Shown here: one piece after another, positions 1,634-40,012 of the stretch
How the letters are laid out: each line of letters begins with the position of its first letter
Position numbering within the stretch: the stretch's first letter is position 1
Assembly: GCA_963847625.1 (NCBI GenBank)
Contig: CAWKAR010000039.1
Location: 128,001 to 192,000, forward strand
Direction of reading: 5' to 3'
Origin: a candidate division FCPU426 bacterium
Lineage (GTDB): Bacteria > Oederibacteriota > Muellerivitia > Muellerivitales > Muellerivitaceae
DNA length: 64,000 nt
The notes under the pieces: model-generated
What the model was told of the DNA's origin: nothing
What the model saw: the letters and a program-made list of their open reading frames with translations, nothing else
Database searches by the model: none
Made by a program: the position numbers and the translations under genes

Positions 1634-2767
1634 TTAACTTTCCGAATCGGAGTTTAACCAGCCTAATGTTTTGTAAATTTTGTCTGAATAAAATCGGCTT
1701 ACTATTTCTTTTTTGAATTCATGAAATTTTTCGGGAGATGCTTTTAGTTCACGTTCTAAATCCTCTCTCGAATAACTCCTGCCGGATAAATAATCTAGTA
1801 TTGATTCATTAGAAGTAATTAATTGCTCGACACATTCAAGGAATACTAAGTGTGAAATAAAGAGTTGATGTTCGTTTCTGCCGGATGGGGACAAATAATA
1901 AAGTTTGGTTCCATCATAAATTCCTTTATGGACTATTTTGCTCCGGATATCAAAAAAGTCCCAAGCCCAAGCGCCAAGCATCGAGTATAAATATTCTTTG
2001 ACATTGTTGTTATATCCGCTTTTTTTTACCACGGTTTTTAATTTTTTTATGTGACAGACTTTATCGATTTTTTTTGCCAAGCGATATTTGCGCCCGGAAG
2101 ATTTTAATAGCGTTTCAAAAGCGGTGCACATCATTACAATCTGAGCAAAAATTGAAATCTCGGGTATCCTTAGTTGAGCAAATTTGAACCATTCCAAGCT
2201 TTGAAAAATGTGTGCTTTTGCAGGAACATTAAATATTTCATTGAATCTATTGCAGAGCCATGGGCTGGGTTTTATTGTTGTTAAATCTTTCACAGATGGA
2301 GGAATTTTGAAGAAAAATTTTTCTTCTCCGGTTGGAATCCTTTTAAAATATCCAAACCATGATGCGTGGTTTAGCTTCTTTAGATTAAATCTTGACGTAA
2401 GGGCACTAAAAGCTTCAGTGCTAAACGGAGCAAAAGAAGAATTAAAAAAGTAATTTCTTAAGTCTGATGAAACTGATGAAAAAATAAATGCTTCAGCAGC
2501 TTTAAATAGAATATTTTTTTGATCGGGTTCAACAAGAGAAAAATTATTATATCGTTCAAAAGAGCAAATAGTCGGGGATTCAATGGGCTTCATTGAATGA
2601 TTTAAATAACATTCAAATAGTTCCTTAAGTTTTTTATAAACTTCGGAATCGAGCCCTTTAGAATTTACATTGCGATCAAAAGGCCAAAATATTATTGGCC
2701 CGATTCGAACATCTTCTTTGATTGTTATCCACGGCATAAAACTGCATTCATGGGTTGGAATTTCCAT
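1634..2767 (-). CDS. HEPN-domain protein (ApeA-like), putative defence RNase
   Basis: C-terminal AFETLL...RSKIVH (E...Rx4H) HEPN motif; 377 aa; island context. Confidence 0.65.
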   Translation of the reverse strand: MEIPTHECSFMPWITIKEDVRIGPIIFWPFDRNVNSKGLDSEVYKKLKELFECYLNHSMKPIESPTICSFERYNNFSLVEPDQKNILFKAAEAFIFSSVSSDLRNYFFNSSFAPFSTEAFSALTSRFNLKKLNHASWFGYFKRIPTGEEKFFFKIPPSVKDLTTIKPSPWLCNRFNEIFNVPAKAHIFQSLEWFKFAQLRIPEISIFAQIVMMCTAFETLLKSSGRKYRLAKKIDKVCHIKKLKTVVKKSGYNNNVKEYLYSMLGAWAWDFFDIRSKIVHKGIYDGTKLYYLSPSGRNEHQLFISHLVFLECVEQLITSNESILDYLSGRSYSREDLERELKASPEKFHEFKKEIVSRFYSDKIYKTLGWLNSDSES

Positions 2768-2957
2768 TTATCACTCTCTTTTTATGATTGATAACATTTA
2801 TTCTCACTCTTAAAGCGTTTCGAATAGTGGAAACCGTCCAGCTTTGAATGGTGGTTTGTAATTCAGCTACCCGGATTTTAAGCCGGGAATGGAGCTTAAG
2901 GGAAAGCCTAATGTGAATAAGCTTTCCTTTTTTTCTCCAAAAATTCACATTTCGCAT
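2748..2957 (-). CDS. Small ribbon-helix-helix-like DNA-binding protein
   Basis: IHIRLSLKLHSRLKIRVAELQTTIQSW pattern (beta strand plus two helices); overlaps the start of the HEPN gene. Confidence 0.55.
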   Translation of the reverse strand: MRNVNFWRKKGKLIHIRLSLKLHSRLKIRVAELQTTIQSWTVSTIRNALRVRINVINHKKRVINGNSNP

Positions 2958-3028
2958 ATTTAACCTTTACTAAGGCCAAAAACGGAAAGTCTTGGCTATA
3001 AATGTAGCCATTTCTTTCTTTTTTCGGC

Positions 3029-3208
3029 CTACTTGCAGGGGTTTTGGGGTGTTTTTGATTGTTCCCAATCCTGGAGGATGTGGAAAAAGTTCACGAGGTT
3101 GTCCACGATCTGCCGCCCGTCCTCCCTGGTTAATTTCCGGGAGGTACGGGGCTGGAAAACCCCTAAAGCTTGGTCAATGAGTTGTTCTTTCGTGAAAACT
3201 TTTTCCAT
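3029..3208 (-). CDS. 59-aa small protein of a type I recall upstream of serine recombinases (not in ORF track)
   Basis: Manual translation MEKVFTKEQLIDQALGVFQPRTSRKLTREDGRQIVDNLVNFFHILQDWEQSKTPQNPCK; co-oriented with the integrase. Confidence 0.65.
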   Translation of the reverse strand: MEKVFTKEQLIDQALGVFQPRTSRKLTREDGRQIVDNLVNFFHILQDWEQSKTPQNPCK

Positions 3209-3309
3209 GACGCACCAAGAATAAAAATTATTTCTTGGCGTAAGGATACGACAGGCAGGGGGGAACTACGGGGGGTAAAAAGGGGAAAGTTAGGGGAAAC
3301 TAGGGAAGC

Positions 3310-3951
3310 TTAGAACAGGTTAAGGCGGTAGAAACCTTTTCCAGCGGGAACAACTATGGTCTTCCATAGAGGGGACTTTTTGAATACATCTTTCATTTTT
3401 TTACTACAAACACCTAAATCCTCAAGAAGGGTATCCTGGTGGACTTGTTTCATTCCTTTTTTGAGGTATTCCCACATACGGTTAATGACACGGCCTTGAG
3501 TAGGGGAAACATGATATTCCAACTGCTTAACTTTAACCGTCCTGAAATCCTCGGTTAGATGGAAATCCGGTTCAGATTTCAATTCTGAGAATGGATTCTG
3601 AGAATCCATTCTCAGATTCGACTCAGAATGGGGAACCATTGCATTTGTAGGGGATATATCGGATTTTAGATTCGAATCTGCACATTCTGAATCTGAGGTT
3701 GATTCTTGGGTTATATCAATAACCGGTTTTTCCGGTTTCGGGTTGGGTTTTGAATTTAATCTTTCTGTAATGTCATCCAAGGTTTCTTGAAGATGGTAAA
3801 TTTTGTAAATTAGATAGGCAAAACTCCCAATAATGGCTAATACCCCAGCTATTATTCCTGCTAGTAACCATCCATTAATGTTTTTGCTTTGTATTGCAAT
3901 TGCTGGCATGGAAAACACCCCCCCAAATGTTATTAATCGTGCAGAGAACAA
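3310..3951 (-). CDS. Membrane-anchored hypothetical protein with possible C-terminal winged-helix domain
   Basis: One TM segment (WLLAGIIAGVLAIIGSFAYLIY), low-complexity linker, C-terminus SPTQGRVI...GKGFYRL. Start may be the ATG at 3909. Confidence 0.5.
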   Translation of the reverse strand: MFSARLITFGGVFSMPAIAIQSKNINGWLLAGIIAGVLAIIGSFAYLIYKIYHLQETLDDITERLNSKPNPKPEKPVIDITQESTSDSECADSNLKSDISPTNAMVPHSESNLRMDSQNPFSELKSEPDFHLTEDFRTVKVKQLEYHVSPTQGRVINRMWEYLKKGMKQVHQDTLLEDLGVCSKKMKDVFKKSPLWKTIVVPAGKGFYRLNLF

Positions 3952-4313
3952 GCGTATACCTTTGGGCGTTTTGTGTCAAGTTTTAGGGCCTTTAGTTTTT
4001 ATGGGACGGTCTTTAAACGAACTGTTAAACAATAACTCATGGGGGAGTTATTACTGTGTGGGGGATAAATAGCTTAGGGAGTTATTCATAGGTCGGGGAG
4101 AGTTATTTAATAACTCTAGTGGGAGTTATTAATAGGTATAGATGCCCATTTATCTAGGTTTAATAGATGCAAATGATATATCATTTGATGTAAGTTTCAG
4201 TTTTTGACTAACGAGATCAAACAGTAACTACCTTAGAAGCTATTGAATAACTCTCTTAGTTACTCAAAGAGTTAATAGATCGGGGATAAACCTATTTGGG
4301 ATGAGATAAACCC

Positions 4314-4612
4314 ATTCTAAGAATCCATTCTCAGAATCCAACCCATTCTTAGAATCTATTCTCAGAATCCATACCCATTAAACCATTTGATATGCCATAA
4401 AACTCATAACTCATAAAGCCATTCTCAGAATGCCATTCTCAGAATCCAACCCATTCTCAGAATGCCATTCTTAGAATCCCATTCTCAGAACCCATACCCT
4501 TTTATTCATTTGATATGCCATAAAACTCATAATTTTAGGGATATAACCCACCCAACCCATACCCGCAAACCCATTACCCATAAACCCATACCCTCTAAAC
4601 CCATAACCCATA
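4314..4612. repeat. Array of 9 palindromic ATTCTnAGAA(T/C) units in two blocks, followed by ACCCAT repeats
   Basis: Units at 4314, 4327, 4345, 4358, 4421, 4435, 4453, 4467 and 4481. Each block is followed by CATTTGATATGCCATAAAACTCATAA (4384, 4507). Confidence 0.9.
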
Positions 4613-9518: not shown

Positions 9519-10571
9519 CCGAATTCACGGAGTAAGTGCAACACTTCGCCGGAAGACTTCCGCCGGAGTTTTAAAGCCCAAACATTTCCTGGGCCTGTTA
9601 TTGAGCCATCTTTCTATGGTCCTGAATTCTTTGAAGGACACTTTAGCAAGATCAGTCTTTTTAGGCAAATGGCGGCGGACAAGACCGATAGTATTTTCCA
9701 CCGTACCTTTTTCCCAACTGTGGAAAGGGGCGCAGAAAAAGGATTTTGTACCAAGCACGTGGTTGGTTTCCAAGTGGTTGGTGTTTTCGGTTCCGTTGTC
9801 ATAGGTCAGACTCAGGCGGGCGTCTTGAGGGAAGCGGCATAAAGCGCGGTTGAGGCTATGACTCATTTGGCGAGCGGTCTTTCGTTTGAGCTTTCCCAAC
9901 TTGGAAAAACGGCTTTGACGCTCGACGAGAGCCCGCATAGCAACTTTACTCTGACGAGAGACCATGGTGTCGGTTTCCCAATGGCCGAATTGCTTGCGTT
10001 GATTGGCGATCTCGGAGCGCTTATCGATGGAAACACGGCCTGGGATATGGTTTTTGGCGTGCTTACGGCTATGGCCAAATGAGAATCGTCGCCGGTGGTG
10101 TCGAACTAGGCAAGGAATCAGCTCAGTGGCTTCAGCATAAACCCACTGATAGATAGCTTCAGGACCAATGGTTTGCTTAGGCCGTAGGTGACCTAATCGA
10201 CCTGAAATGAGTTCTGGAGACCAGCCTCGTTTCAATTGACGACGGACGTAGGCACGAATTCGTTTTGTTTTCAGGCGTAAACGGCGTGCTCGTTGTTGGT
10301 TGCGGTCAACATACCGTTGATGGGCTCGATGAGAAAGATAATAACCAGAACGGATAGGGGGAGCATTGCGCTTGAGTTCCCTGGAGAGGGTGGAAGGAGA
10401 CCTCTTCAAGGCGCGTGAAATTGCTCGAAGGCTAAGACCCTTTCCTTTCAAGACGGATAAATGATCTCTTTCTTCAACGCTTAAATGCTTGTATTTCTTT
10501 TTCATAGCCGCATATCCTATTCATGCGGCCTTCTTCAGACACTAAGTGTTGCACTTACTTATGGAACTCGG
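9519..10571 (-). mobile_element. IS30-family insertion sequence (1053 bp)
   Basis: 28-bp imperfect TIRs: CCGAATTCACGGAGTAAGTGCAACACTT (9519-9546) and the reverse complement of 10544-10571. No target duplication visible. Confidence 0.93.
9525..10505 (-). CDS. IS30 transposase
   Basis: HTH (RSPSTLSRELKRN), WSPELISG, GHWETD, TYDNGTE, WEKGTVEN, LNNRPRKCLG. Confidence 0.97.
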   Translation of the reverse strand: MKKKYKHLSVEERDHLSVLKGKGLSLRAISRALKRSPSTLSRELKRNAPPIRSGYYLSHRAHQRYVDRNQQRARRLRLKTKRIRAYVRRQLKRGWSPELISGRLGHLRPKQTIGPEAIYQWVYAEATELIPCLVRHHRRRFSFGHSRKHAKNHIPGRVSIDKRSEIANQRKQFGHWETDTMVSRQSKVAMRALVERQSRFSKLGKLKRKTARQMSHSLNRALCRFPQDARLSLTYDNGTENTNHLETNHVLGTKSFFCAPFHSWEKGTVENTIGLVRRHLPKKTDLAKVSFKEFRTIERWLNNRPRKCLGFKTPAEVFRRSVALTP

Positions 10572-10594
10572 GGTTCTTATAAAGATAATCGGCA
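10572..10594 (-). repeat. Truncated copy (D) of the double-hairpin element, cut by IS30
   Basis: Reverse complement CTGTCATTGTGCCGATTATCTTTATA matches copy A (TTGTCATTGTGCCGATTGTCTTCATA). Confidence 0.75.
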
Positions 10595-10634
10595 CAATGA
10601 CAGTTATTAAATTTGTGCTTAAAGGTGGGGTGAC

Positions 10635-13600: not shown

Positions 13601-14183
13601 GCCGCCTTGGACGGTCGCGAAGGATAAATTGCCCCTCGACTTGAAGGGCACCCAGAAATTCAAGGTCCAGCCGCTCAGCCCGAACGAGGGGTGGTTTGAG
13701 GTCTCCAATGTCCGCAAGGTTTCTATGCCCCCCCCGGCGGGAAAGGCCGCGGGGTTGCTGAAATTGTCCGCGGGGGACTCCCTTTGGAGCACCGGGGACG
13801 GCGGGTTCAAGCTGGATAAGTCGATCGACTCGAACCAGCTTCTCCACGTCAATTTCACCCTGGGCAAGTGGTGCATGACGGGAGCCTCGGGGAACTACGC
13901 GTCGGCGCATTTGCAGGGCTTCAAGTTCAAGGCCAAGGGGGCGGGGGTGAACCTGAGGGTCGCGGTGCAAGACTACAAGAGCCACGACTTCGGGAAATCC
14001 ATCACCCTCACGGGCAACCTGGCGGAGTACACGGTGCTTTTCACCGAGTTGCAACGGGCTTCCTGGGAGACCGCGGACAAGGACGCCGCCCTGGATACCA
14101 CGGCCCTGACCCAATTCAAGATCCAGCCCATGGCTCCTGCCGAAGGGGAGTTTTGGATTTCGGACTTCGAGTGGGTGAAGTAA
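10635..14183 (+). CDS. Secreted multimodular GH9 endoglucanase (CBM9-like, Ig, GH9, two CBM11/CIA30-like modules)
   Basis: Signal peptide; DSVEVY/GYVIEA/VNDAD CBM9-like motifs; QVGY; GGWHDAGD; YLTNE; two similar C-terminal modules. Confidence 0.9.
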   Translation: MTRTNKVLNLCVGILLACSVLGTASAHTHGVVTAVEVAEAPVIDASLTGWKAPFVHVSSQTPAWFMGKSRIYGKAAKSPEDIEAWYSLAWKGDKLFFAAIVLDDVIVKNTSPDLGQAWNSDSVEVYFSFNHDSPFFTESRTPPYRAGDFQLRFIPFEGQDGVYGGAYLGNNASGIDNDKFQAGVKSVSKPYTFGKRSGYVIEASIDTAALGFSNLLQAGKVLGFEFAVNDADSKEGRDRMLTWSSFENRAYKDPSCFGDLVLAGPTGAFVPAAGSESTDKEGYYLVPGDVVSQTPEEALQNPPGDESPGRVVYTNNPPAGAKNISGMFDPSPFRPISGPEIRYCQVGYLPNGKKTAYLEVPCGDKPPAWTFSLSQGGKEVYSGPLRKWGTLWRRDYYLLYFNDFTGTGKGFTLSVGDVKTDSFPITTGVYDATVTMALNGVFVAEKCGMDAATFHGPCHLDDAVQAGPDDVRSGQTILQFPPVFKPGTRVDVSGGWHDAGDFGKYMGNAPLGLAGFLLVEDQFHSRMEPDLDGKDAMVHEAEYTADWCMKMQDKDGGVFERVWNGFDYKGTVESEKDRLLDSDKWANVTARWAAAAALGAQVLKGPDPDYASKLAESAQKAWEYVEKCPAQPEQPWAFGVYPGNDSCFFWAAVELYRLTLVDKYLQEALKRLPAMLQMKPAFMAWSGNNTIALIRFYPVMPDGPDKDSVRDWLVNRMKQLDKGETKTPFGVDYFSQTGWGDSGDLVSRAMERYLIKKILPDSGGADSVECYRQWIYGANPSGYCFVVGRGSKQVQHQATGLKKNMPGAMVPGIIDDGAGLPFYIDLDSSYLTNEAGPDPSVVFLSYMDTPWNKALTLQDAAEMKKEAALALAKPSRPDTSLIADFSNVSADSIWSGGGGAGKLDKSIVETAPGGGKAFRGDFTVGEWCTSVVPAGGDLSSFTGMTFQLRGNGCRLRVAIDDANAEDWGTEVTATTDWKPVTIYFTDLVQPPWTVAKDKLPLDLKGTQKFKVQPLSPNEGWFEVSNVRKVSMPPPAGKAAGLLKLSAGDSLWSTGDGGFKLDKSIDSNQLLHVNFTLGKWCMTGASGNYASAHLQGFKFKAKGAGVNLRVAVQDYKSHDFGKSITLTGNLAEYTVLFTELQRASWETADKDAALDTTALTQFKIQPMAPAEGEFWISDFEWVK

Positions 14184-14205
14184 CATCGAATAAAATATTT
14201 TATGT

Positions 14206-14493
14206 TGTCATTGTGCCGATTGTCTTCATAGACCGTATTTGGAAATCGGTACCATACCGACCTCTTTAAATGCTTTATGGAAGGTCGGCATGCGACAAAT
14301 GACCGCCGAATAGGCGGTCGATAATGAGAGGCTTGAAGTAGTTGACCTGAAATTCAGGCCAACCATACTTGGCCCAAAGGGCCAATGTACAACCCAAGTT
14401 TAAATAAGCTTTTTAAGAGATTTAATTCGAACGACGAACTTAGGTCGCCACGTCGGCAACCGCCCCGATTGGGGCGCCTCCTCGCGATGACAG
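14206..14493. repeat. GTCATTGCGA...TCGCGATGAC palindromic intergenic repeat (RPE-like), interrupted by copy A
   Basis: Right arm reads CTGTCATCGCGAGGAG...CGACGTGGCGACCT on the minus strand. The left arm TGTCATTGCGA appears only after removing copy A. Confidence 0.7.
14214..14290 (+). repeat. Double-hairpin miniature element, copy A
   Basis: TGCCGAT..ATCGGTA hairpin followed by TACCGACC..GGTCGGCA hairpin. Confidence 0.85.
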
Positions 14494-14519
14494 CTTTATT
14501 TCTGTTCTTGGGAGTTATT

Positions 14520-15689
14520 TTGAAAAAATCCATGGAACTCATTTACGCCCGGGCCTTCCAGGGCGCCCCGGAGGTATTTTCCTGGGCGCCGGGGCGGGTG
14601 AACCTCATCGGGGAACACACCGACTATAACGACGGTTTCGTCCTGCCCATGGCGGTGGATAAGGGGGTCGCCCTCCTGGGAGCGGCGCGGCAGGACCGGA
14701 ACGTCCGCCTGCATTCCGCCGATTACAACCACGTGGTGGAATTTTCACTCGACCATTTGGCAACCGACCCGCAGAACCCCTGGGTCAACTATTTCAAGGG
14801 CGTGGCGGACCAGTTCCAGAAGAAGGGCCTGAAACTCAAGGGCTGCCAGGCGGTCCTGAAGGGAGACCTCCCCCAGGGGGCGGGCTTGAGCTCCTCGGCC
14901 GCCTTGGAAATCGCCTCCGCGGTGTTTTTACAAAAGACCTCCGGTTTCGAACTGCCGGACCTGGACCTGGTCAAGGCCGCCCAGTCGGCGGAAAACCAGT
15001 TCGTCGAGGTCAACTGCGGCATCATGGACCAGTACGCTTCCTACCTGTCCAAGGCGGGACATGCGCTGTTGATCGACTGCAAGAGCCTGAAATGCGGGTG
15101 GGTTCCCATGAAAGGGCCGGTGAAGGTGGTGGTTTGCGACACTCGGGTCAAGCGCACCCTGGCCAACTCGGCCTATAACGACCGGAGGAAGGAATGCGAA
15201 AGGGGATTGCGCGCGCTGAACGCCAGGCTCCCGGCGGTGCAATCCCTGAGGCACCTTACCCTGGAGGACCTGAAGAAACACCAGGGCCTCCTGGACCCGG
15301 TGGCCCTCAAGCGCGTCCGGCACGTGGTGACGGAGAACCAAAGGGTCCTGGACGCGGTGGCCGCACTGGAGAAAGGGGATTACCAGGCCATGGGCCGGCT
15401 GATGGTCGAGTCGCACGAATCCCTCAAGAACGATTACGAGGTGAGCTGCCGGGAACTGGATGTGATGGTGCGGATCGCCAGGAACAACCCGCAGGTGTAC
15501 GGGGGCCGCATGACCGGGGCCGGGTTCGGGGGCTGCACCGTGAACCTGGTGCGGGAGGAAGCCGTGGCGGGGTTCCGCCGCGAGATCCTGGACGGCTACA
15601 AGCGGGAAACGGGCCGGGACGCGGAAGTCTACGTGTTCACTCCCGCCGACGGGGCGAAAAACGCGGTGGAAGAACGCAAGGAAGTTTGA
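14520..15689 (+). CDS. galK: Galactokinase
   Basis: PGRVNLIGEHTDYNDG, GAGLSSSAA, CGIMDQ, RMTGAGFGG. TTG start after GGAG (alternative ATG 14532). Confidence 0.95.
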   Translation: MKKSMELIYARAFQGAPEVFSWAPGRVNLIGEHTDYNDGFVLPMAVDKGVALLGAARQDRNVRLHSADYNHVVEFSLDHLATDPQNPWVNYFKGVADQFQKKGLKLKGCQAVLKGDLPQGAGLSSSAALEIASAVFLQKTSGFELPDLDLVKAAQSAENQFVEVNCGIMDQYASYLSKAGHALLIDCKSLKCGWVPMKGPVKVVVCDTRVKRTLANSAYNDRRKECERGLRALNARLPAVQSLRHLTLEDLKKHQGLLDPVALKRVRHVVTENQRVLDAVAALEKGDYQAMGRLMVESHESLKNDYEVSCRELDVMVRIARNNPQVYGGRMTGAGFGGCTVNLVREEAVAGFRREILDGYKRETGRDAEVYVFTPADGAKNAVEERKEV

Positions 15690-15755
15690 GGGAATGTTAG
15701 GTAGGTGTTCTAAACATAGTCTACTTGGCTATAATGGGACAAAATATGACCAGTT

Positions 15756-16058
15756 ATGGAGTTTCAAGTGGGAACGGATGAAATCCTTAAATCAAAGCGA
15801 AACGAGATTTTAAGCTTGGCCGCCCGTTACGGGGTCAAGAACCTGCGGGTATTCGGTTCAGTGGCTCGTGGGGAGGCTGGGCCGGACAGTGACGTGGACT
15901 TCCTTGTGGATATGGAATCGGGCCGAAGCTACTTGGATATTGGCGGATTTTTAATGGATATGCAATCACTGTTAGGCCGTAAAGTGGATATTGTCACGGA
16001 ACGGGGTTTGCACCCTTATTTGCGCGAGAGGGTTTTGAAAGAATGCCAAACGGTATGA
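15756..16058 (+). CDS. Minimal nucleotidyltransferase antitoxin (MntA-like)
   Basis: FGSVARGEAGPDSDVD motif. Confidence 0.92.
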   Translation: MEFQVGTDEILKSKRNEILSLAARYGVKNLRVFGSVARGEAGPDSDVDFLVDMESGRSYLDIGGFLMDMQSLLGRKVDIVTERGLHPYLRERVLKECQTV

Positions 16059-16363
16059 AAGATGACACGATTTATTTAATCCATATCCGGGAATGCATCG
16101 CGAAGATTGAGGGATATATTAAGGGCGGCCATCAAGAGTTCCTATCAAACCAAATGGTTCAAGACGCGGTTCTTCGCAATCTTCAAGTCATGGCTGAATC
16201 CTGCCAACATTTATCCGAGAAATTAAAATCCGATCATCCTAAAATTGACTGGAATGGGTTGTCGGGTTTTAGGAACGTATTAGTCCATGACTATTTGGGA
16301 GTTGACCTTGAACGCGTATGGCTTCTCCTGGAAAAACACCTTTCGGGATTAAAAAAAATATGA
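16055..16363 (+). CDS. HepT-like (DUF86) HEPN toxin
   Basis: QDAVLRNL...IDW...FRNVLVHDY; ATGA overlaps at both ends. Confidence 0.9.
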   Translation: MKDDTIYLIHIRECIAKIEGYIKGGHQEFLSNQMVQDAVLRNLQVMAESCQHLSEKLKSDHPKIDWNGLSGFRNVLVHDYLGVDLERVWLLLEKHLSGLKKI

Positions 16364-17265
16364 AACCCAGCTTGTTGGTCATGGCCGCGGGTATGGGAAG
16401 CCGCTACGGCGGCTTGAAGCAACTGGAGTCCGTGGGCCCCAACGGGGCCACGCTCCTGGATTACTCCATCCATGACGCGCTCAAGGCCGGCTTCGGCCGG
16501 GTGGTTTACATCATCCGCAAGGACCTGGAGAAGGACTTCCGCAAGATCGTGGGTTCCAAGTGGGAAAAAACCGTCCCGGTGGACTACGTATTCCAGGAAC
16601 TCTCCCTCCTTCCACCGGGCTTCAAGGTCCCTCCCGGGCGTTCCAAGCCCTGGGGCACGGGCCACGCCATCTGGACCGCCAAGGACGCCCTGAAGGAGCC
16701 CTTCGCCGCACTGAACGCCGACGATTATTACGGCCCCAAATCCTTAAAGATGCTAGCGGATTTCCTATCCACCCTATCCGATTCCCGCGAAAATCAATTT
16801 GCCATGGTAGGTTTCCGGCTGAACCAGACCCTCTCGGAATTCGGACCGGTGGCGAGGGGGGTCTGCGAAGTGAGTCCCGACGGCTATTTGAAACGGGTGG
16901 TGGAGCGCCTCAAGATCCAAAGGGAAGGGCAGGGCATCCGATACCTGGAGGAAAACGGGACACCGGGCCCGCTTCAGGGAACGGAAACCGTCTCGATGAA
17001 CCTCTGGGGATTCACCCCGGCTTTGTTCCTCTCCCTGGAAAAAGGCCTGACCGCCTTTCTATTGGTAAGGGGCGGGGAGGAAAAATCCGAGTACCTCATC
17101 CCCCGGGAGGTGGACTCCCTCCTGCAATCGGGCCAGGCCCGAGTGAAGGTGCTTCCCACGGAGGATCCCTGGTTCGGCATGACTTATCCCGAGGACCTTT
17201 CCGCAGTCAAGAACAGGATCAAGAACATGGTGGCCCAAGGGGTCTATCCGGAAAAACTTTGGTAA
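16360..17265 (+). CDS. Sugar-phosphate nucleotidyltransferase
   Basis: MAAGMGSRYGGLKQ, KPWGTGHA, NADDYYG. Confidence 0.9.
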   Translation: MKPSLLVMAAGMGSRYGGLKQLESVGPNGATLLDYSIHDALKAGFGRVVYIIRKDLEKDFRKIVGSKWEKTVPVDYVFQELSLLPPGFKVPPGRSKPWGTGHAIWTAKDALKEPFAALNADDYYGPKSLKMLADFLSTLSDSRENQFAMVGFRLNQTLSEFGPVARGVCEVSPDGYLKRVVERLKIQREGQGIRYLEENGTPGPLQGTETVSMNLWGFTPALFLSLEKGLTAFLLVRGGEEKSEYLIPREVDSLLQSGQARVKVLPTEDPWFGMTYPEDLSAVKNRIKNMVAQGVYPEKLW

Positions 17266-17342
17266 AGCGCGGCCCCATCCCTCAAAATTTCCTGGCCGCT
17301 TTCAAAACTTCTATCTAGACACATCCCTACAAAAATAATACC

Positions 17343-17514
17343 TAGCCACGGATGTGCCGATCATCTAAAAAAATATAAGAGAGATCGGTACGATACCAGC
17401 CTCCATATCAGCTTTATGGAAGGCTGGCATGCATGGGATATATGGGATGTAAAAACACAAGTTTAAGGTTTTTTTCTATAGTCTATCCAAGTGCATCCCC
17501 TGAATCCGTGGCTA
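17343..17514. repeat. TAGCCACGGAT...ATCCGTGGCTA inverted-repeat element, interrupted by copy B
   Basis: Perfect 11-bp terminal IR, extending to 18/20 once copy B is removed. Confidence 0.8.
17355..17429 (+). repeat. Double-hairpin miniature element, copy B
   Basis: TGCCGATC..GATCGGTA plus TACCAGCC..GGCTGGCA. Confidence 0.85.
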
Positions 17515-17799
17515 AGAACTTGGTTTTGCTTAACGTCTAATAGACTTAGGATTTTCTGATTTTATTTATCTTTGTTTCTTGGTTTTGTTTTATTTGGACA
17601 ACTATGATCTAAGCATGAAAGCCCTACCAATCCCGAGAATGGTCGGAAAAGCGGTTTCAGTTTTTTGAAACAAACTGGAAACTTTCTTGGAGGTTTCAAA
17701 AATTCATCACGTAAAATAAAAATTTCATGTGCTTGGAATTGCGCGAGGCTGTAAAGTATGGGGCAGTTTCGCCATTTAAACACTTTGGAAAAGGTCATC

Positions 17800-39795: not shown

Positions 39796-39827
39796 AAGAA
39801 AAAAGCTAAACCGAATCATTCGCCACA

Positions 39828-39901
39828 TGCCAATCTTCCATGAAGCTTAAAAAGAGATTGGTATCGTACCGATCTCCAATAATTTTTATGGATGATCGGC
39901 A
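39828..39901 (-). repeat. Double-hairpin miniature element, copy C, inside a GCCAC^GGATTCAGGGGATG repeat
   Basis: Reverse complement reads TGCCGATC..GATCGGTA plus TACCAATC..GATTGGCA. Flanks rejoin to the same arm as the reverse complement of 17495-17512. Confidence 0.85.
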
Positions 39902-40012
39902 CGGATTCAGGGGATGACTTTAAATAAATTTGTGGTAGTTTTTCGATCTATGAAAATCCACAATCATTCATAATTCAAAATTGAGAATTCATAATTTTAG
40001 TTAAAGGTTCCC

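Follow-up and report, generated by a model that had tools for sequence, protein, structure and literature searches.

The window, a stretch of 64,000 nucleotides, is part of contig C39 of genome G000 (4.43 Mb, 63 contigs) and contains copies A, B and C and fragment D of a non-coding double hairpin, together with the repeats that host them:

9519..10571, reverse strand: insertion sequence (IS) cutting D, 1.05 kb, bounded by terminal repeats of 28 nt and encoding a transposase of 326 aa (HTH_38 plus rve)
10572..10602, reverse strand: fragment D, a host arm followed by TG and 23 nt of hairpin 1, truncated by the IS
14206..14492, no strand assigned: host of A, a long inverted repeat of the GIY-YIG-flanking type, its left arm split by A and its partner arm at 14482-14492
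14212..14292, forward strand: copy A, with TG at each end (14212-14213 and 14291-14292)
14214..14251, forward strand: hairpin 1 of A, with a 7-bp foot, a conserved G.T and an AT-rich loop; stem covariation across 121 copies
14252..14254, forward strand: central C-N-A triplet of A, candidate guide; bases 1 and 3 covary with the end dinucleotides, base 2 is free
14255..14290, forward strand: hairpin 2 of A, its foot with a conserved A.C mismatch and its 3' end giving an SD-like purine run before ATG
17343..17514, no strand assigned: host of B, an inverted repeat of the family flanking the GxxExxY gene of G000, with its partner arm at 17495-17514
17353..17431, forward strand: copy B, with TG at both ends and CGA at the centre
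39822..39917, forward strand: host arm of C, belonging to the host family of B, interrupted at a different position and on the opposite strand
39826..39903, reverse strand: copy C, with CG on the left, TG on the right and CGA at the centre

Removal of A or B with one dinucleotide kept restored the host repeat, with 10/11 matches to the partner arm at 14482-14492 and 18/20 matches to the arm at 17495-17514, respectively, and removal of C restored the host family of B at another position and orientation, with CG at the left and TG at the right junction. A TG duplication and a clean insertion beside a G yield identical sequence. The initial annotation, according to which every double-hairpin copy is inserted precisely into another palindromic repeat, thus holds for A, B and C. 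For D, the left junction was indeed shared with A, yet it cannot be counted as a double-hairpin copy, as 23 nt of the element are followed by a terminal repeat of the IS, whose transposase we take to be of the IS30 family. Other features were also observed in the window. A hairpin repeat at 14330-14400, between the arms of the host of A, recurs after a copy elsewhere in G000 (C9:10686); a two-gene module at 15756-16363, between galK and an NTP transferase gene, presumably resembles a nucleotidyltransferase-HEPN toxin-antitoxin pair and is missing from that place in the congeneric genome G001; and palindromic tandem repeats of 13-14 nt are clustered at 3577-4501.

A hidden Markov model (HMM) of the element, built from 84 seed copies and used with a cut-off of E ≤ 0.001, gave 148 hits in G000, 121 of them full-length copies of about 75 nt (73-82 nt) with the layout TG - hairpin 1 - C-N-A - hairpin 2 - TG. 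The element is extragenic, high-copy and palindromic, with only one of the 148 hits inside a called gene; genes were called with a simple in-house model, so that 'intergenic' is approximate here and below. Stem changes across the 121 copies were compensatory inside each hairpin (Watson-Crick fractions of 0.77 and 0.71), while the alternative outer and inner pairings fitted less well (0.60 and 0.62, respectively). The second pair of hairpin 1 is G.T in 108 of the 121 copies and the corresponding mismatch of hairpin 2 is A.C in 111, and therefore each strand carries one of each. A DNA search detected the element in 15 of 18 genomes of the host's taxonomic family and in 0 of 12 outside it, and a strict pattern detected it in 22 of 30 other genomes of that family. 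At least 118 metagenomic stretches carried it, using a pattern in which TG/CNA/TG was fixed, and the viral contigs searched gave 0 matches. In the GTDB pattern search, 14 loci passed the HMM among the 53 matches listed, the remaining 39 being dropped as chance. An Rfam search over 14150-17650 returned nothing near gathering score, and no description of the element was found in the accessible literature.

Copies also occur in head-to-tail arrays: three arrays in G001 contain 7, 8 and 8 copies, with neighbours sharing one TG. The seven-copy array (L329:10810-11346) combines two variants in the order AABBABB. Some subfamilies have a rewritten, still paired hairpin 1, with hairpin 2, centre and TG ends unchanged (L345 from G011, and G000 C19:3573 plus six similar copies). 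At G000 C3:95363-95520 two decayed copies with CTG centres abut what appears by eye to be the 3' end of a tRNA gene, with an integrase nearby (C3:95956), and at C3:42561-42973 two half copies lie in opposite orientation with swapped host flanks, which suggests an inversion between copies.

The distribution of the 121 copies over host repeats was analyzed both per copy and per event. Merging of 5 tandem copies left 116 sites, of which 87 had, after in-silico excision, an unfilled paralogue across the junction, compared with 718 of 2500 random intergenic TGs; when long repeats were excluded, the values were 84/109 and 323/2060 (16%), respectively. Empty host alleles therefore exist in number, as the earlier reading implied, and they differ from the filled ones by one extra dinucleotide: filled sites hold it twice, and the best empty matches once. 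An unfilled twin of at least 95% identity over at least 36 nt was found for 28 of the 116 excised sites, and 107 of the 121 copies had a repeat on at least one side, against a background of 533/1498. Genome-wide, the claim that every copy is nested fails, since some copies lie in unique DNA, including at start codons. The hosts are unrelated families, as had been proposed, though about ten of them rather than two.

Counted per event, the 116 sites collapsed to 46 junction classes. Empty paralogues exist for 23 of these classes, and 44 copies sit at three positions within a single host family. A tree built from 75 columns of the inserts, with rough support, placed an 11-copy class at one host position in a single starred clade, while three other host positions needed at least six, at least four and at least three lineages. 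In G001 the whole composite of B and its host is absent from the orthologous place and present at other loci, and the place orthologous to site A holds an unrelated repeat instead. When the identity of inserts was compared with that of their flanks by Mantel tests, the four largest classes gave p values of 0.07, 0.86, 0.33 and 0.07, none significant, so that co-amplification is not proven everywhere. Host-plus-insert composites appear to spread as units, and part of the nesting excess looks like hitchhiking; movement of composites, insertion on several occasions and precise loss may each contribute.

Rough motif matches, on which the host-family labels rest, sorted the 121 copies into 45 in GxxExxY-type hosts, 16 beside another copy, 10 in GIY-YIG-type hosts, 30 in five other groups and 20 unassigned. 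Nuclease genes of the GxxExxY, GIY-YIG and DUF559 types carry three of the host families as their terminal repeats. The family that hosts B and C borders the GxxExxY gene of G000 (C49:65153-65494, detected by profile search and missed by the motif scan) on both sides, and related arms flank most of 12 GxxExxY genes in relatives; another host family flanks 8 of 8 DUF559 genes, and the GIY-YIG gene of L080 (1900-2620) has arms of the type hosting A on its flanks, one of them filled. Each of these gene types (C49:65153-65494; L347-L366; L080) has its own inverted repeat family, of which gene-less forms are abundant. Two further double-hairpin families, X (22 hits) and Y (46 hits), were found inserted into hairpin 2 of the element; the G000 loci noted for each are:

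C57:102984, C63:92947, C3:149004 and C21:16301: family X
C3:30367, C40:94711 and C19:14978: family Y

The element also inserts into family X, and family Y carries a module similar to hairpin 1.

The initial annotation had ascribed the nesting to structure-directed targeting, with a machinery that recognises the extruded hairpins of other repeats; as the main cause of nesting, we consider this rather unlikely. Local folds gave no pairing signal at or around the target: target TGs were no more paired than control TGs (p=0.22), and in 80 junction classes from all sources the pairing of the dinucleotide was 0.54 vs. 0.55 (p=0.65; folding energy, p=0.076). Compared with random intergenic DNA, the folds of empty sites are more stable (p=0.006), which does not hold in comparison with other repeat TGs (p=0.86). 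An inverted partner arm within 400 nt, which would favour hairpin recognition, was found at 19 of 114 sites against 11 of 482 controls (4 of 45 classes), and the dinucleotide was fully paired in 3 of those 19 sites. Four single host positions were filled in 16/71, 10/41, 9/115 and 5/43 cases (8-24%), compared with 116 sites among about 90,000 intergenic TGs; such filling could come from a real preference or from amplification, and the several insert lineages per position noted above, which likewise speak for a preference, can also be supplied by one old composite acting as a reservoir. The occurrence of 23 of the 46 junction classes in repeats, against 16% of random TGs, is matched by the surroundings, as 49% of the intergenic TGs lying no more than 300 nt from a site are in repeats vs. 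50% at the class level, in a control that includes the hosts themselves. A stem-loop requirement in the target has been reported for ISPpu10 (10.64898/2026.03.19.712850). Insertions of the element in unique DNA and at start codons speak against hairpin recognition as the main cause.

Six of the 121 copies passed a strict ATG start-codon test, in which an SD-like run lies upstream of the ATG (about 2.5% expected), four of them in unique DNA. In most start-codon copies the element end rebuilds the SD-like run and ATG (G000 C28:117784, C19:167448, C23:28680 and C3:35622; L075, L088, L308, L336 and L337 are copies on the TG of an ATG), and their centre presumably resembles a -10 box. One copy occurs at an identical junction in several genera (L013, L052, L128, L156, L228 and L254), its centre drifted in two, and is possibly domesticated. 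These copies raise the question of whether the family is itself immobile, a structured RNA or a promoter/ribosome-binding cassette under selection that spread passively with host repeats. Such a reading accommodates the SD-like run before a terminal ATG in 81 of the 121 copies, the provision of the start codon of real genes by some of them and the conservation of one copy upstream of the same gene across genera in spite of drifted centre bases; as a main account it is contradicted by the precise filled and empty twins, the 46 junction classes, the lack of strand bias relative to genes and the lack of an Rfam match near gathering score over 14150-17650. We regard it as most improbable for the family at large, and it may hold for a few domesticated copies.

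The two ends and the centre of the element vary together, a pattern that is new here and absent from the earlier reading. The combination TG/CnA/TG was found in 90 of the 121 copies in G000, CG/CnG/CG in 8 of the 9 copies with CnG centres and TA/TnA/TA in 4 of the 7 with TnA centres. The same dinucleotide occurs on both sides in 109 of the 121 copies, and CA/CA ends are found in 0/121 in the oriented frame, so that orientation is fixed (TG, never CA). Near-copies were collapsed to 180 rows, related copies among them not being independent, and covariation was expressed as mutual-information z values. The third centre base was strongly associated with the first end base (z = 13 on the left and 18 on the right), the first centre base more weakly with the second end base (z = 4.9 and 3.8), and the other centre positions gave z ≤ 1.6 with the end dinucleotides. 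Loci L191-L308 were excluded from this test because the metagenome pattern fixed TG/CNA/TG. Among the collapsed rows with TnA centres 4 of 8 have TG/TG ends, and the second rule (TnA with TA) is therefore weaker; these exceptions could be explained by G.T wobble or drift. In a comparison bearing on the cut register, one-sided mismatches of the first end base numbered 6 on the left and 5 on the right, and those of the second end base 9 and 6, respectively.

The rule was also followed out of sample, where ends were predicted beforehand from searches on the centre only: CnG copies of G001 had CG/CG ends in 7 of the 8 parsed. Moreover, copies with CG ends are spread over at least four host contexts and several places in the tree. 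In one loop subfamily at one DUF559-type host position, TAA/TTA centres accompany TA/TA ends in 6 of 7 copies (G031, G040 and G041), the seventh having AA/TA, while in G042 the same subfamily at that type of position has CAA with TG/TG in 4 of 4. At this position the dinucleotide, as read from L154, apparently faces an internal loop of the host, so that pairing within the host does not account for the change in the ends. Two exceptions, with centres GGA and CTT, belong to the copy upstream of one gene that is common to several genera, which is likely fixed.

Regarding the geometry, the bottom strand of the centre reads A-T-N-G, with N free (67/34/14/6). In a linear copy each hairpin is able to pair one end base with the centre, and in circular folding 83 of the 121 bottom strands and 56 of the 121 top strands form both guide pairs and leave the middle base bulged. 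The covariation of one central triplet with both ends, in other genomes as well, fits a single internal DNA guide and an intermediate in the form of a closed single-stranded dumbbell, as judged from sequence variation. Since both ends follow the centre, selection at the time of insertion would be needed, and pairing with the central triplet is likely what selects the target at that step.

An ordinary double-stranded miniature element (MITE) that ends in short inverted repeats and is mobilised by a DDE transposase, duplicating a 2-bp TG, would share some of these features: the ends form inverted repeats of about 7 bp, the dinucleotide is equal on both sides in the 109 copies mentioned, and several DDE families lie near copies in relatives. 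Symmetric ends would, however, give TG and CA equally, and no CA/CA was seen among the 121 copies; a target duplication has no means of covarying with a triplet located 38 nt from it; the stems vary in agreement with the two hairpins (0.77 and 0.71) and not with the outer arms (0.60); and neither G000 nor the fetched loci yielded a longer element in which these ends enclose a gene. The MITE reading is thus largely refuted, and we hold it to be highly improbable.

Genes in the vicinity of the copies were searched for a candidate enzyme. No recurrent neighbour was found among 203 genes flanking copies in G000, among 643 ORFs near copies at 80 metagenomic loci, at the 14 HMM-confirmed GTDB loci (among the matches listed) or in the dense copy regions of G001 and G016. 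The Pfam searches covered 18 proteins, 9 of them ORFs of these dense regions, and the neighbours consisted of toxin-antitoxin genes, IS transposases and housekeeping genes. All three Y1 genes in G000 carry terminal repeats other than the element, and copies lay near only 2 of 30 Y1 loci of five relatives, whose assemblies are incomplete. The Y1_Tnp profile gave no match in the element carriers G031, G036, G040 and G042 and did give matches in genomes without a pattern match. The short TnpA genes of L014-L017 and L019 had no element HMM match around them, and a search in G000 and the fetched loci for element ends split around a gene returned only decayed or nested copies. An IS110 exactly abuts the terminal repeats of Y1 (RAYT-like) genes at L001:1-1409 and at L003:1-1410 and 2430-3327, on both sides in L003. 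Overall, no cognate mobilising enzyme emerged from the neighbour, Y1_Tnp or integron integrase searches, the last of which (TIGR02249) gave 0 of 31 genomes of the host's taxonomic family above cut-off.

A Y1-type enzyme is favoured by analogy only, with the Marinomonas TnpA-REP system, and we propose a Y1 HUH protein tentatively, as a candidate somewhat short of an even chance. The same folded circle and guide pairing could instead be processed by single strand exchange, performed on folded single-stranded DNA by a tyrosine recombinase or an enzyme of the host, in the manner of attC sites rather than by HUH chemistry. The predicted circle junction would suit this, being a pseudo-palindromic duplex in which one base is bulged and fixed mismatches lie on each side, two positions out, as would the 18 PF00589 matches in G000 and the failure of Y1 genes to track the element. 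No recombinase gene recurs beside copies, however, no integron integrase exceeded the TIGR02249 cut-off in the 31 genomes, and the element as seen in the sequence is without the AAC/GTT cores of attC. Strand exchange is, on this evidence, distinctly unlikely.

Taken together, the account towards which we lean, with slightly better than even confidence, is that of an element that would move in the form of a closed single-stranded DNA dumbbell. Its central C-N-A triplet would choose a target TG by pairing with it, and a candidate nuclease, probably of the HUH (Y1) type, would cut it in trans; nesting would be due mainly to hitchhiking and survival. Excision would probably close a circle in which the end dinucleotide is paired across the bulged centre, and insertion of circles at their own junctions would give the head-to-tail arrays, which can also arise by slippage. 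Where a copy lands in the mobile end-repeats of a GxxExxY, GIY-YIG, DUF559 or other cassette, it would then multiply with its host, and a copy landing in a gene would be lost, unless placed on an ATG that the element end rebuilds. In addition, the element may have a modest real preference for repeat DNA. Orientation relative to genes showed no bias (33 vs. 47, p=0.15), nor did orientation relative to local GC skew (37 vs. 41), although the skew is weak in this assembly. One public DNA run (0.04 share, contigs only) contained no joints and was kept out of the evidence. It is also conceivable, but doubtful, that the element represents a new class of minimal mobile DNA. It would then be a closed single-stranded dumbbell of about 75 nt, with one triplet guiding both ends and single base changes shifting its target, served by an enzyme that does not belong to the known Y1 transposases; as a hyperparasite it would exploit the end-repeats of several unrelated nuclease cassettes (GxxExxY, GIY-YIG, DUF559) amid hairpin elements that insert into one another.

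To our knowledge, how REP-like repeats spread is still open, and we know of guide-directed site choice shown in vitro for few enzymes. The natural variants described here record retargeting, in that, across several hosts and genomes, a different centre comes with different bases at both ends, and the 75-nt element can serve as substrate, with a prediction at the level of one base, in the search for the enzyme and in its testing. The counts also indicate that precise nesting can be inflated by hitchhiking, so that event-level counts are needed before it is read as structure targeting. In this lineage, GxxExxY, GIY-YIG and DUF559 genes can each be linked to a common repeat family. The weight of the finding lies in the guide covariation and the enzyme question, rather than in hairpin targeting.

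Among known systems, the closest likeness in geometry is found in Marinomonas, where TnpA (a group 3 RAYT, TnpA-REP) cuts at CA by means of guide bases T2 and G4 and can be retargeted by guide changes; this T2-G4 to CA rule has the same geometry as the bottom-strand T-N-G of the element (PMC8266576). The element resembles REP/REPIN-RAYT systems in being a short, extragenic, multi-copy inverted doublet that forms tandem arrays (PMC8266576, PMC3116915) and in having a dinucleotide site that, as in those systems (PMC8266576), may be set by a short guide beside a hairpin, a reading that the covariation fits; occasional insertion of REPINs into REPINs is likewise on record (PMC3116915). It differs from them in having one central triplet for both ends, whereas REPs each carry a GT(A/G)G tag, in a covariation that favours two hairpins (0.77, 0.71) over one long hairpin (0.60, 0.62), and in a dinucleotide placed directly at the hairpin feet; moreover, no RAYT gene flanked by the element was found among the three Y1 genes of G000 and the 30 Y1 loci of five relatives.

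With IS200/IS605 derivatives, as presented in PMC8266576 and PMC6006769, the element shares two hairpins, oriented insertion, target choice by a putative DNA guide and precise empty sites. In contrast to them, only a dinucleotide is conserved in its targets (46 and 80 classes) rather than a tetra- or pentanucleotide, its hairpins are terminal and not subterminal, its guide is shared instead of being separate on the left and right, it showed no replication-strand bias in a weak test (37 vs. 41 against a GC skew that is itself weak), and no parent IS with its ends was found at the TnpA loci L014-L017 and L019 or in the split-end search. Non-autonomous, palindrome-associated members of that group are, we assume, those labelled PATE.

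Repeated, precise insertion of a mobile element within another palindromic repeat has precedents, which include REPs nested in other palindromes (the GTAG-15, GTAG-23 and CGTC-1 cases; PMC3733652), ISs targeting REPs (PMC1525189) and ISPpu10, an IS110 with a stem-loop requirement in its target (10.64898/2026.03.19.712850). The accounts of those cases name one host repeat each, whereas the element occupies unique DNA as well as about ten unrelated host families, and related hairpin families in turn insert into it. It differs from the donors of IS110 bridge recombination in that its targets share a dinucleotide only, with no long programmed target, and the IS110 ends in L001 and L003 give no element HMM match. 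Integron attC sites are folded single-stranded substrates with extrahelical bases and AAC/GTT cores; the element is predicted by folding to share the substrate form with extrahelical bases, but it has neither attC cores nor cassette genes, and no integron integrase was found in the 31 genomes of the host's taxonomic family. A shared central guide and such a breadth of hosts were not found in the accessible literature. Because the tag, fold and cognate-gene tests failed, the element is not filed as a REPIN or as an IS200/IS605 derivative, though it is similar to both in its working.
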